Part shown: positions 228-10,567 of the stretch, piece after piece
How the letters are laid out: every line of letters begins with the position of its first letter
Position numbering within the stretch: the stretch's first letter is position 1
Source of the DNA: an uncultured archaeon
GTDB lineage: Archaea > Asgardarchaeota > Lokiarchaeia > Sigyniarchaeales > SOKP01
Direction of reading: 5' to 3'
Assembly (NCBI GenBank): GCA_964508365.1
Contig: CAZDTP010000091.1
Location: 1 to 11,192 of the forward strand
Length of the DNA stretch: 11,192 bases
The notes under the pieces: generated by a model
What the model saw: the letters and a program-made list of their open reading frames with translations, nothing else
Database searches by the model: none
Told to the model about the DNA's origin: nothing
Position numbers and translations under genes: made by a program

Positions 228-506
228 TTGTTGTTTGAAGAAAAGAAGAAACCAGAAAAGAAGAAAAAGAAATTTGGAAAGACCAAATTGATTGCTTTCC
301 TTATTTTGCTGCCTATAGTATCGTTATTAGTCACTTTGCTGATCTTAGCAATCCCTTACGGTATTGCTACTAGGTTGGGGGTGGGGATGGAAGATTACTG
401 GACATATATTTTCCAAAATGGGTATTTCTGGCCTACCTTTGGTGTGGTTTTACTCGTCTCTCCTATAATCACAGCTATCTTGTGGATGGTCGTAGCGAAT
501 TATTGA
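228..506 (+). CDS. Small two-TM membrane protein; stand-alone copy of the C-terminal module of the LRR protein at 8324-10468
   Basis: 92 aa, TTG start, Lys-rich N-terminus then two hydrophobic helices. TKLIAF...SPIITA is identical to the end of the 714-aa protein. It has its own copy of the upstream motif. Confidence 0.7.
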   Translation: MLFEEKKKPEKKKKKFGKTKLIAFLILLPIVSLLVTLLILAIPYGIATRLGVGMEDYWTYIFQNGYFWPTFGVVLLVSPIITAILWMVVANY

Positions 507-605
507 TTTTAAAACGAAAAATGTCCTAATACCAAAAAAAATCAGAGAAACTAAGTTAATTATGATTGAAATCAAAATTATTGAGTAAAAATTCGTCAAA
601 CTTAC
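285..605 (+). repeat. Left copy of long direct repeat (partner 10247-10567)
   Basis: 285-466 matches 10247-10428 at 181/182 nt (one synonymous C/T at 309/10271). 467-605 stays collinear without gaps at about 72% (39 mismatches in 139 nt, hand count). Confidence 0.97.
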
Positions 606-890
606 GAAAAAGAATGCAATTGCTCCCAAAATGGTGAATGTAATGTCGCTTCCTGAATTTACTACACTATCTTTTTTTTTATTAAATTTTACATAAGCTC
701 TCAAGAAATTGCTATTTTCGATTATTTCCCATAAAACACTTATGAACAAAATTAATAATAAGCTTATAAATAATGGGATAAAGAGGATGAAGAAAATCAT
801 GTGTAATACATAACCTTTGAGAAAATGTCCCAAGCTAAAAGGGTCAACTGCCGCAATGCCGTAGTCTTCCTTGGTCCGTGCGATAATCAT
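450..890 (-). CDS. DUF2585-like integral membrane protein
   Basis: 146 aa, about 4 TM segments, with D-x-x-S-x-x-H (DPFSLGH), WE-x-x-EN (WEIIEN) and DS-x-x-NS-x-x-D (DSVVNSGSD) motifs as in DUF2585 (recognised by motif, not searched). 3' end overlaps the 228-506 gene by 57 nt. Confidence 0.8.
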   Translation of the reverse strand: MIIARTKEDYGIAAVDPFSLGHFLKGYVLHMIFFILFIPLFISLLLILFISVLWEIIENSNFLRAYVKFNKKKDSVVNSGSDITFTILGAIAFFFVSLTNFYSIILISIIINLVSLIFFGIRTFFVLKSIIRYDHPQDSCDYRRDE

Positions 891-8186: not shown

Positions 8187-8219
8187 TGCAAAAAATCATA
8201 CCTTATAATTATTTATACA
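8187..8219 (+). promoter_or_regulatory. Conserved upstream motif copy 6 plus TATA-like box
   Basis: TGCAAAAAATCATACCTTA at 8187-8205 (17/19); TATTTATACA at 8210-8219; 137 nt before the TTG at 8324 and only 20 nt after the previous stop. Confidence 0.75.
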
Positions 8220-8323: not shown

Positions 8324-10468
8324 TTGAAAAGAAATATAAATAATTTAGTCTTGGTTGTTATGTTCTTTGGATTTTCCCTACTATTCATAAGTTCGTCATT
8401 AATCCTCAAAAACTATGAGAATAAACCACCATTTCAACCGATTGCTAGTGCGGGTGAAATTACTCTCCTTACTCCCGAGAATATCACCTATATAACTGGA
8501 ATGGATGGTTATTTTGCAGGCACCTATAGTTTCGAAAATGAAAATATCGGTTTTAATCCTTCAAATTGGAATGTATTTGAAGATGGTGGCTACGTGAATA
8601 TAAAGGATTCCTATTTAGGACATAATGAGGTGGTAGAATTATGTAAGAATTCTGGTGGAATTGTAAGTTGTCGAAATTTATTTGAAAACAAGACTAGTGG
8701 ATTAATTGAATTTTGGTTTTGCTCAAATAGAACAGATCAGGAATTTTTAATAAGGATCAGTGATGGAGAATTTTATGGTGGCAGGATTGAAATCAAATTT
8801 GGGGATGATGGTCAATTAAAGGTACTTGATGGTATTCAAATCTCGAATATTATTTCATATGTAGGAGATACTTGGTATCACTTAAAAATTGAGTGGGATA
8901 TTTTTCAGGGAGATTTTGATTGGAACTTAAGTTTGAATGATACAGAGGTTGGAACTTTTTCTTTTTACGGTAATCCTTTTAATCTCAATAGGATCATATT
9001 TAGTAGTGATATAAGTTCTCCTTCTGAGAATGCATATTTTTACATAGATGCAGTTGGTTATTCTTGGGATCAAGAATACGAAATTGGGGATAATCTATAT
9101 GAAGGATTATTGGTAAACTTTGAAACAACTTTGAGTTTTGAAACATTTTGGTGTGAATTAGATGGTATTCATTACAAGAATTTTATAGGGAACCATACAA
9201 TTCCAATGATACAATATGGCTCCCATTCCCTACAGGTTTTTGGAACCATATCTTCTACAACCTACTCTTCAAACATCGTTCATTTTACAACCTTGGTGGA
9301 TAGGTGGGGTCCATCAATAATCATTAAATCACCAGGTGAAAATAGTATCCATATCTTTAGGCCTCCTATATGTGAAATTGAAGTAAATGATCCCAATGGA
9401 GTAAATGCGACTTATTACATGCTCACATATGGAGGGGTATCCTCTTCACTAACGAAATGGGAAGGTTTTATCAATTCAGATGTCTGGAATTCAGCACCTG
9501 ATGGAGAGATAACCATTACTTTTTATTCTCAAGATGACCTTGGAAATTGGTCATGGAAAAGTATCACGGTAATAAGAGCTCTTAAGTTATTGATTCTAAT
9601 CATTGGATTACCCTTATTGGTTTGTATAGCATCACTAGGGATTTGGTTATTTTTGCGAAAAAGAAAGAAACTACGGGAAACTGTGGAAAACATGAGATAT
9701 GAGGATCTTCAAGAAAACATGGTGATCGTGAAAGGAAAGAAGTACAAAAACAAATCATTGGAAGGACTAACTTTGCGCAATCTTAAGATTTCCTATGTAG
9801 GTGAAATATTTGGGTTCGAACAGCTTTCAGAACTTAAGAAGTTAAACTTAGCTCAGAATAACCTGACCTCTATTAAGGAACTGGGACATAGCGAGAGCCT
9901 AACAGAATTGGATTTATCCCAAAACAAGATAGTAAACTTGTCAGGGATTGAGAAACTTACTAACCTGAAAGTTCTCTATCTAGATGAAAATAAGATTGTA
10001 GATATCTCACCAATATCGGGGCTTTCCCATCTTCAAATACTTCATATCAGACATAACGATCTTCCCACTTTGGATCCCTTATACGACCTAATTAACTTAA
10101 GTTCCCTTTGCATAGAAGGAAATTATAAGATCGTGTATTCTTGGGAAAATACCTTGTTCAAACGTCTTCGCTATCTTGATATCAGGCCAAAACCGACAGT
10201 TAGTTATCAAGAAAGCGATAAAGTAAAGAGTAAGAAAGGGAATACAAAATTGATTGCTTTCCTTATTTTGTTGCCTATAGTATCGTTATTAGTCACTTTG
10301 CTGATCTTAGCAATCCCTTACGGTATTGCTACTAGGTTGGGGGTGGGGATGGAAGATTACTGGACATATATTTTCCAAAATGGGTATTTCTGGCCTACCT
10401 TTGGTGTGGTTTTACTCGTCTCTCCTATCATCACCGCCTTTTTGTGGTTTGTTGTACAGGATTATTGA
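8324..10468 (+). CDS. Receptor-like membrane protein: extracellular LamG-like and Ig-like domains, TM, cytoplasmic leucine-rich repeats, C-terminal two-TM hairpin
   Basis: 714 aa, TTG start. N-terminal TM; about 390-aa beta-rich region; TM at about 9587-9655 followed by RKRKK; six LRRs at about 9758-10130, four of them exact 22-aa SDS22-like units (e.g. LTELDLSQNKIVNLSGIEKLTN); two more TM helices. Confidence 0.93.
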   Translation: MKRNINNLVLVVMFFGFSLLFISSSLILKNYENKPPFQPIASAGEITLLTPENITYITGMDGYFAGTYSFENENIGFNPSNWNVFEDGGYVNIKDSYLGHNEVVELCKNSGGIVSCRNLFENKTSGLIEFWFCSNRTDQEFLIRISDGEFYGGRIEIKFGDDGQLKVLDGIQISNIISYVGDTWYHLKIEWDIFQGDFDWNLSLNDTEVGTFSFYGNPFNLNRIIFSSDISSPSENAYFYIDAVGYSWDQEYEIGDNLYEGLLVNFETTLSFETFWCELDGIHYKNFIGNHTIPMIQYGSHSLQVFGTISSTTYSSNIVHFTTLVDRWGPSIIIKSPGENSIHIFRPPICEIEVNDPNGVNATYYMLTYGGVSSSLTKWEGFINSDVWNSAPDGEITITFYSQDDLGNWSWKSITVIRALKLLILIIGLPLLVCIASLGIWLFLRKRKKLRETVENMRYEDLQENMVIVKGKKYKNKSLEGLTLRNLKISYVGEIFGFEQLSELKKLNLAQNNLTSIKELGHSESLTELDLSQNKIVNLSGIEKLTNLKVLYLDENKIVDISPISGLSHLQILHIRHNDLPTLDPLYDLINLSSLCIEGNYKIVYSWENTLFKRLRYLDIRPKPTVSYQESDKVKSKKGNTKLIAFLILLPIVSLLVTLLILAIPYGIATRLGVGMEDYWTYIFQNGYFWPTFGVVLLVSPIITAFLWFVVQDY

Positions 10469-10567
10469 TTTTAAAACACTATATGCCCTAATACTGATAA
10501 AAAGCAAAGAAATTAGTCCAAGTATGAGAGAAATCACGATTATCGCAACGAAATTCATCAAACTCAC
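10247..10567 (+). repeat. Right copy of long direct repeat (partner 285-605)
   Basis: Constant offset of 9962 nt with no indels across 321 nt. Confidence 0.97.

Follow-up and report, generated by a model that had tools for sequence, protein, structure and literature searches.

A probable single-case fusion of a lectin-like surface protein gene with a membrane-anchored leucine-rich repeat gene in an uncultured Lokiarchaeial genome

Towards the right end of an 11,192-nt stretch of DNA from an uncultured archaeon of the Lokiarchaeia (Asgardarchaeota; Sigyniarchaeales; SOKP01; contig CAZDTP010000091.1 of GenBank assembly GCA_964508365.1), a single long open reading frame (ORF) encodes a protein, P0001, that combines a lectin-like and immunoglobulin (Ig)-like part with leucine-rich repeats (LRRs) and a C-terminal hairpin of two transmembrane (TM) helices. 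The whole stretch of 11,192 nt is called the window below. We regard it as probable that two complete genes have here been fused head to tail and in frame, in one lineage only, and that the product directs the lectin/Ig part outward and keeps the LRR domain in the cytoplasm, with a membrane tether at both of its ends. This layout is real in the sequence but it is a single case, hence a curiosity and not an established receptor class.

LRR proteins are unusually numerous in Asgard archaea, and a recent survey calls their functions unknown and doubts a role as receptors (PMC13734099). Literature searches yielded no report of an Asgard TM protein whose LRR is cytoplasmic, nor of the P0001 architecture.

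Two complete genes in one reading frame

P0001 was folded with AlphaFold2 (AF2) as two halves, residues 1-470 and residues 405-714, the latter together with an alignment of its family. For the N-terminal half the mean predicted local distance difference test score (pLDDT) was 70, with a well predicted jelly-roll at about residues 70-250 and two less confident beta-sandwiches behind it. Foldseek matched the jelly-roll to carbohydrate-binding modules (CBMs) of the ConA/LamG type, including the CBM of the sialidase BT_1020 (5mqr) at 4e-11. The Pfam family Sialidase-like_CBM was hit at 3.8e-5 and 24.1 bits, below its 27-bit cut-off, and P0007, a paralogue of the ectodomain, carries PF13385. The paralogues (P0006-P0010 and ORFs in loci L033-L037) are fast-evolving surface proteins of Promethearchaeota with 29-38% identity to the N-terminal half of P0001. 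Stand-alone proteins of this kind (441-478 aa) have the same layout as residues 1-449, from the signal helix through jelly-roll, Ig-like domains and TM helix to the basic tail; they differ from P0001 in that nothing follows the TM helix and its short basic tail except, in some, a small zinc ribbon in the cytoplasm. Neither an LRR nor extra TM helices occurred in any of the paralogous LamG/Ig surface proteins examined. Judged by sequence, residues 1-449 are a complete member of this paralogous surface-protein family.

Zinc ribbons on the cytoplasmic side of the TM helix were seen in LamG/Ig surface proteins of loci L034 (1486-3315, plus strand) and L035 (1207-2529, minus strand) and in P0010, which shows that the LRR is not the only kind of cytoplasmic part to have been added to this ectodomain family. 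An earlier interpretation of this DNA, made from its letters alone (the sequence-only reading), had proposed a census of the cytoplasmic domains fused to the ectodomain family; among the paralogues examined here, these zinc ribbons occurred but no LRR.

For the C-terminal half, the AF2 model had a mean pLDDT of 83, with values of 90-97 in the LRR solenoid. In it, TM2 forms part of one long helix, behind which come the beta-hairpin of the N-cap, six short strands in parallel and helices at residues 639-671, 676-685 and 689-713. Pfam assigned LRR_4 (1.2e-16, 60.8 bits) and LRR_8 (1.4e-12, 47.6 bits; both cut-offs 27), and NCBIfam returned just generic internalin-type LRR matches far below the cut-offs. 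In Foldseek the LRR resembled SDS22 and internalins (InlA), with a root-mean-square deviation of 1.5-1.9 Å at about 30% identity. Structure prediction, which the sequence-only reading had put forward as a check, thus gave both the LRR solenoid and the ConA/LamG-like jelly-roll, and the domain content of P0001 is established.

The relatives of this half are separate genes. A genus-wide six-frame search with the TM2-LRR segment returned as best matches, at 34-38% identity, open frames of about 250 aa in which the LRR begins at the initiator Met and two hydrophobic helices lie at the C-terminal end. P0001 residues 465-714 aligned over the whole length with the 247-aa protein P0019 (BLASTP 2e-20, 250 versus 244 residues). 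An alignment with 27 family members covers the N-cap, five 22-residue repeats and the C-cap (LKRxDxG), then a basic stretch and two helices, a and b, with a short loop between them; helix b carries the motif F(W/L)PxFG, and 17 columns are invariant across all rows. A profile of the hairpin matched the copy in the window at 5.9e-15. LRR-hairpin proteins of Promethearchaeota (about 245-272 aa; P0019; P0062, 'leucine-rich repeat domain-containing protein') match residues 466-714 end to end, and a gene for DUF2585 lies convergent at their 3' end. P0001 differs from them in sequence (about 30% identity), in a shorter linker before the hairpin, in a longer outer loop and in having a complete surface protein with its own TM helix in front. 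Its N-cap departs from the family norm by starting at residue 466, behind 449 residues of surface protein and a linker; Met466 is two residues off the family's start-Met position. By these alignments the LRR-hairpin family includes residues 466-714 as a full-length, though strongly diverged, member. The origin of the gene from two genes is established on this basis. A three-part chimera had been proposed in the sequence-only reading; the fusion stood, but the parts number two, since LRR and hairpin belong to one ancestral gene. The features are compiled in Table 1.

Table 1. Features of the P0001 gene, its upstream motif and the duplicated hairpin/DUF2585 segment. Positions are those of the window.
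Feature	Position	Strand	Basis or remark
Whole ORF (protein P0001)	8324..10468	+	Open frame, 714 aa from TTG start
TM1 (residues 8-29), signal peptide or N-terminal anchor, MKRN before it	8345..8410	+	Hydropathy, flank charges; helix 2-22 in AF2 model
ConA/LamG-like jelly-roll, extracellular (about residues 70-250)	8531..9073	+	AF2 pLDDT 82-90; Foldseek; sub-threshold Pfam; PF13385 in paralogue P0007
Two Ig-like beta-sandwiches, extracellular (about residues 260-325 and 330-418)	9101..9577	+	All-beta AF2, moderate pLDDT; segment common to stand-alone surface proteins
TM2 (residues 420-444) and RKRKK stop-transfer tail (445-449)	9581..9670	+	Matches end of stand-alone surface proteins; paralogues end in TM and short basic tail
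16-residue linker (450-465) joining two former genes	9671..9718	+	No in-frame stop; GAGGA 13 nt before ATG at 9719
Cytoplasmic LRR (residues 466-625): N-cap beta-hairpin, five 22-residue SDS22-class repeats, C-cap	9719..10198	+	Pfam, alignments, AF2, Foldseek
Basic juxtamembrane linker including KVKSKK (residues 626-642)	10199..10249	+	Sequence, hydropathy/charge
C-terminal 2-TM hairpin: TM3 643-665, outer loop 666-688, TM4 689-711 with FWPTFG motif; N-in, C-in	10250..10468	+	Hydropathy, AF2, alignment, family charges
Shared promoter-type motif (TGCAAAAAA..., then TATA-like box)	8187..8216	+	Upstream of P0001 gene; sixth copy, direct-repeat family D7
Hairpin copy A: stand-alone 92-aa ORF, basic N-terminus, own promoter motif at 143	228..506	+	Repeat and ORF analysis
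Full-length DUF2585 (cpCone) gene	450..890	-	Convergent with hairpin copy A; sole complete copy in genome
DUF2585 remnant, 57 codons	10412..10585	-	Convergent with and overlapping P0001 hairpin
Copy B of 300-nt direct repeat (hairpin and DUF2585 3' end)	10238..10537	.	Repeat analysis

The motif upstream of the P0001 gene is the same as that of the neighbouring surface-protein genes, which supports the fusion reading. A repeat finder recovered its copies as one family, D7; they are about 30 nt long and begin with TGCAAAAAA, behind which comes a TATA-like box. Six copies lie in the window (at 143, 931, 2600, 3413, 7859 and 8187), and each plus-strand gene of the window, including the stand-alone hairpin ORF and the fusion gene, is preceded by one of them. 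In the public gene call P0001 starts at Met13 (position 8360) and has 702 aa. As compared with the start at 8324, this one costs the protein its n-region and truncates the first hydrophobic helix, whereas with the TTG further upstream P0001 has a canonical MKRN n-region followed by an h-region.

Predicted membrane topology

In Kyte-Doolittle (KD) hydropathy profiles with 19-residue windows, P0001 has exactly four hydrophobic segments, TM1 to TM4 (Table 1), with maximum means of 2.4 to 3.1. TM2 is the second most hydrophobic of them (2.86) and has seven K/R within the next 15 residues, the RKRKK stretch following it immediately; KVKSKK (residues 633-638) stands just N-terminal to TM3. The charge is distributed unevenly along the protein. 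Residues 30-419 are acidic, with 4.9% K+R and a net charge of -32, whereas residues 445-642 are basic (16.7% K+R, net charge +8). In the 23 residues that separate TM3 from TM4 there is one Arg only.

The relatives of the C-terminal half point in the same direction. The 27 members of the LRR-hairpin family have no N-terminal hydrophobic segment (maximum 15-residue KD 1.19). In these proteins the 15 residues before helix a average 3.9 K+R, compared with 0.29 in the loop between the helices, and because of this basic flank and the K/R-poor loop the family hairpin is taken to be N-in and C-in. Zinc ribbons are cytoplasmic modules, and the same hairpin sits behind Pfam-confirmed zinc ribbons in other genomes. 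In the genome of the window, 11 ORFs have at least three strict LRR motifs, and the ten besides P0001 lack any TM segment. Provided that the ORF is real, these four independent lines (the charge pattern of P0001, the signal-less family, the zinc-ribbon heads and the TM-free LRR proteins of the genome) place the LRR of P0001 in the cytoplasm with high confidence.

The sequence-only reading had derived from the positive-inside rule that the LamG/Ig part is outside and that the LRRs form a cytoplasmic loop closed by a two-TM hairpin. This is supported, and not by that rule alone, since the N-in hairpin and the signal-less or zinc-ribbon heads of its family add to the charge asymmetry of P0001; so far as prediction goes, the topology of P0001 is shown. 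Its statement that the protein lacks an enzymatic output domain agrees with Pfam, by which neither a TIR nor a kinase domain was detected in P0001.

The LRR-hairpin family, DUF2585 and the duplicated hairpin

The LRR-hairpin family is well represented in metagenomes: at 90% identity there are at least 45 clusters that are covered in full, and the source organisms, if named, are given as Promethearchaeota or Lokiarchaeota. In the taxonomic family of the window's genome, the LRR-hairpin gene is the middle one of a trio. Before it stands a gene for a Flavodoxin_5-like protein that ends in a zinc ribbon, and behind it a convergent DUF2585 gene (cpCone, Lipocone superfamily), often with overlapping 3' ends; such trios lie in L014 (814-2710), L016 (868-2700), L028 (3329-5191), L030 (3310-5206) and L027 (4001-5293). 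DUF2585 has been placed, as 'cpCone-DUF2585', in the Lipocone superfamily of predicted lipid-head-group enzymes (bioRxiv 10.1101/2025.01.14.632903). In all ten other loci that were examined a DUF2585 gene adjoins the hairpin gene, mostly in convergent orientation at its 3' end. In one genus DUF2585 is convergent with a second hairpin gene. In genome G072 its convergent partner is a 113-aa zinc-ribbon-hairpin gene, not the LRR gene.

The window contains two copies of the end of this gene pair. A 300-nt direct repeat links positions 276-575 with 10238-10537, with a core of about 190 nt that has one mismatch and a downstream flank of about 75% homology. The hairpin occurs just twice in the genome, both times within the duplicated hairpin/DUF2585 segment, and the hairpin as an independent mobile element was therefore rejected. 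The claim of the sequence-only reading that the last part of the protein is mobile holds to the extent that the hairpin has been duplicated and, over evolutionary time, joined to varied heads, but the repeat is the end of a hairpin/DUF2585 gene pair and no free module.

The full-length DUF2585 gene at the left end of the window is well preserved. Archaeal DUF2585 homologues, aligned together with the window copy, have 20 invariant residues in common, all of which the latter retains (e.g. D16, H22, W54-E55, E58-N59, D74-S75, N78-S79 and D82). Going by this conservation, the window DUF2585 is probably an active enzyme despite the rearranged locus. A complex prediction for DUF2585 with the hairpin scored 0.00 in both runs, which is no verdict either way on binding. 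PADLOC defence models matched neither P0001 nor DUF2585, P0019 or the upstream neighbour.

Over evolutionary time the head in front of the hairpin has been an LRR, a zinc ribbon or none. With the single sequence P0017 as the query, the hairpin search returned nothing in 59 relatives, and only a profile recovered the hairpin family. In a sample of 251 genomes of the phylum the hairpin was present only in the window's own taxonomic family, in 17 of its 54 genomes and three genera. Genes in which the hairpin is combined with a zinc ribbon lie in L039 (4148-4489, minus strand) and L041-L045 (e.g. L041, 1065-1709, minus strand). In proteins of 113 aa the hairpin follows an N-terminal zinc ribbon. 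It also stands behind a zinc ribbon in proteins of 209-250 aa that have further TM helices and a PGF-CTERM-like tail ('PGFEPFLF...'); their genes adjoin one for a polytopic membrane protein of about 220 aa without a Pfam match.

Beyond the DUF2585 remnant, the right end of the contig (positions 10586-11192) consists of about 600 nt of AT-rich DNA with a G+C content of about 0.25. Apart from the remnant it holds no ORF of at least 30 aa, and it shows no similarity to sequences elsewhere in the genome and no tRNA or Rfam match; neither tRNA genes nor Rfam families were found in the window as a whole.

Origin of the probable fusion, its possible role and related systems

Several observations weigh against a fusion of the kind favoured here. 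The cluster of P0001 has one member on one contig, and the fusion was not found in 41 genomes of the same genus. An exhaustive search of 1.84 billion representatives with a profile of the C-cap and hairpin gave eight matches, all of 113-272 aa; among LRR relatives of 392-1250 aa there was nothing alike; and exact-match scans of public metagenome and genome contigs did not turn up the junction anywhere else. Within the scope of these searches the fusion is shown to be unique. In a maximum-likelihood tree the terminal branch of the P0001 LRR-hairpin part measures 2.21 substitutions per site against a median of 0.14, as would be expected either if the sequence changed fast once fused or if constraint on it was relaxed. 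Finally, Met466 with its upstream GAGGA permits separate translation of the LRR-hairpin part. The inverted receptor design put forward in the sequence-only reading thus keeps its LRR-inside layout, but as a design it has a single occurrence, on one 11-kb contig of a metagenome-assembled genome (MAG), and no relatives with the same architecture.

The fusion could be genomic and nevertheless without coupling, as a neutral or decaying join (e.g. by deletion between adjacent genes) in which the surface protein is unchanged and the LRR-hairpin part is dead weight or is made separately from Met466. Its singleton state and its long branch would suit such a history, as would the deviation of the LRR half at nearly invariant family positions and the closeness of Met466, 13 nt behind GAGGA, to the family start. 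The locus is also clearly rearranged, because the canonical upstream neighbour, the Flavodoxin_5-like/zinc-ribbon gene, did not turn up in the genome to which the window belongs and the DUF2585 gene next to this copy is a truncated one. That GAGGA-ATG spacing is long, however, and a frame of 249 codons has stayed open in a genome of about 32% G+C. The asparagine and leucine ladder of the LRR is intact and folds with the high pLDDT given above, while the hairpin core is near-identical to copy A, which suggests recent conversion or constraint. On balance a neutral join appears unlikely, though it deserves to be taken seriously.

A technical origin is improbable. In this case a stop or frameshift would be masked by a sequencing or consensus error, or the pieces would have been brought together by an assembly misjoin, and there would truly be two neighbouring genes, one for a surface protein (about 455 aa) and one for an LRR-hairpin protein (249 aa). 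This would be in keeping with an 11.2-kb MAG contig that has paralogous repeats near both ends and with the failure of the exact-match scans to find the junction in independent DNA. The gap between the upstream gene and the LRR-hairpin gene is just 7 to about 60 nt in relatives, and therefore one single-base error in the 48-nt spacer would suffice to create a false fusion. Yet the frame is continuous, the linker has a coding-like G+C content of about 40% as compared with roughly 25-28% in local intergenic DNA, and the base composition does not jump at the junction. As the assembly contains the junction sequence just once, a repeat-driven misjoin between ectodomain and LRR is unlikely, and a repeat-mediated misjoin at this point was rejected on the same ground. 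Still further from the data is a classical topology in which TM2 does not span the membrane or the hairpin is inverted and the LRRs lie beside the lectin on the cell surface. The best-matching eukaryotic and bacterial LRR proteins do include extracellular internalins, and the LRR segment has four N-x-S/T sequons, but these sequons belong to the LRR consensus. The strong hydrophobicity of TM2 and the K/R residues that follow it, the basic LRR loop as opposed to the strongly acidic ectodomain, and the signal-less LRR and zinc-ribbon heads on the N-terminal side of the hairpin make such an arrangement scarcely credible.

Under the favoured reading of a true fusion, a membrane-anchored LRR scaffold would have been captured as an extension of the cytoplasmic tail of a lectin-like surface protein. 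With the lectin/Ig part outside and the LRR solenoid clamped on the inner membrane face by TM2 and the hairpin, an SDS22-class protein-binding surface would thereby be held against the inner face of the membrane. We infer that the product may serve as a surface adhesin or lectin presenting a protein-binding LRR near the membrane. Clustering or ligand binding outside might then be coupled to the recruitment of a partner from the cytosol or the membrane; the lipid-head-group enzyme DUF2585 would be one possibility. A bolder version, in which P0001 is a genuine Asgard receptor of undescribed design, appears doubtful to us. Here the extracellular lectin/Ig part would be mechanically coupled through TM2 and the hairpin to the doubly tethered cytoplasmic LRR, and an outside ligand would alter LRR binding and possibly regulate DUF2585/cpCone. 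If this were true, it would be the first lead to a function for the expanded set of LRR proteins in these archaea.

Toll-like receptors, plant LRR receptor kinases and internalins carry their LRRs extracellularly. Toll-like receptors, plant LRR receptor kinases and receptor-like proteins share with P0001 a bitopic, receptor-like layout of LRR and TM helix; the LRR of the receptors and kinases is outside and is joined to a TIR or kinase output, whereas that of P0001 is inside and has neither. SDS22, a regulator of PP1, and the Listeria internalins have the same class of 22-residue LRR and are the best structural matches, but SDS22 is soluble and internalins are secreted or wall-anchored, and neither has an N-cap motif of the P0001 type, a TM clamp or a lectin ectodomain. 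Integrins and cadherins, adhesion receptors with adaptor-binding tails, may be compared with P0001 as a functional analogy only, in the combination of an extracellular binder with a non-enzymatic, protein-binding cytoplasmic part; the folds are unrelated. In animals, the LRRC8 subunits of VRAC are integral membrane proteins with a cytoplasmic LRR (PMC8440666). This position of the LRR is the sole feature that they have in common with P0001. LRRC8 forms a hexameric channel with a pannexin-like four-TM pore and a free C-terminal LRR horseshoe, without a lectin ectodomain and without tethers at both ends of the LRR, whereas in P0001 the TM helices are arranged as 1 + 1 + 2 around the LRR. Neither Pfam nor NCBIfam detected a pore domain of the pannexin-like or LRRC8 kind in P0001, and no sequence relationship was seen.

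The conserved pairing of LRR-hairpin genes with DUF2585 is a more durable finding than the singleton fusion. A small, conserved family of membrane-anchored cytoplasmic LRR proteins that is paired with DUF2585/cpCone points to a role of LRRs at the inner membrane face, and it would be a useful result even if the fusion were an artefact or neutral. A natural fusion of an LRR with a surface lectin hints, by gene-fusion (Rosetta-stone) logic, that surface proteins and the LRR scaffold may cooperate; if real and functional, it would represent archaeal outside-in coupling without an enzyme domain.

The LRR-hairpin genes also vary in length between close relatives. The same gene was found in two closely related genomes as a 281-aa version (L039, 2049-2894, minus strand) and a 149-aa version (L040, 3105-3554, plus strand) that differ greatly in the number of repeats but have identical N- and C-terminal parts, a difference that points to the recent gain or loss of whole LRR units.

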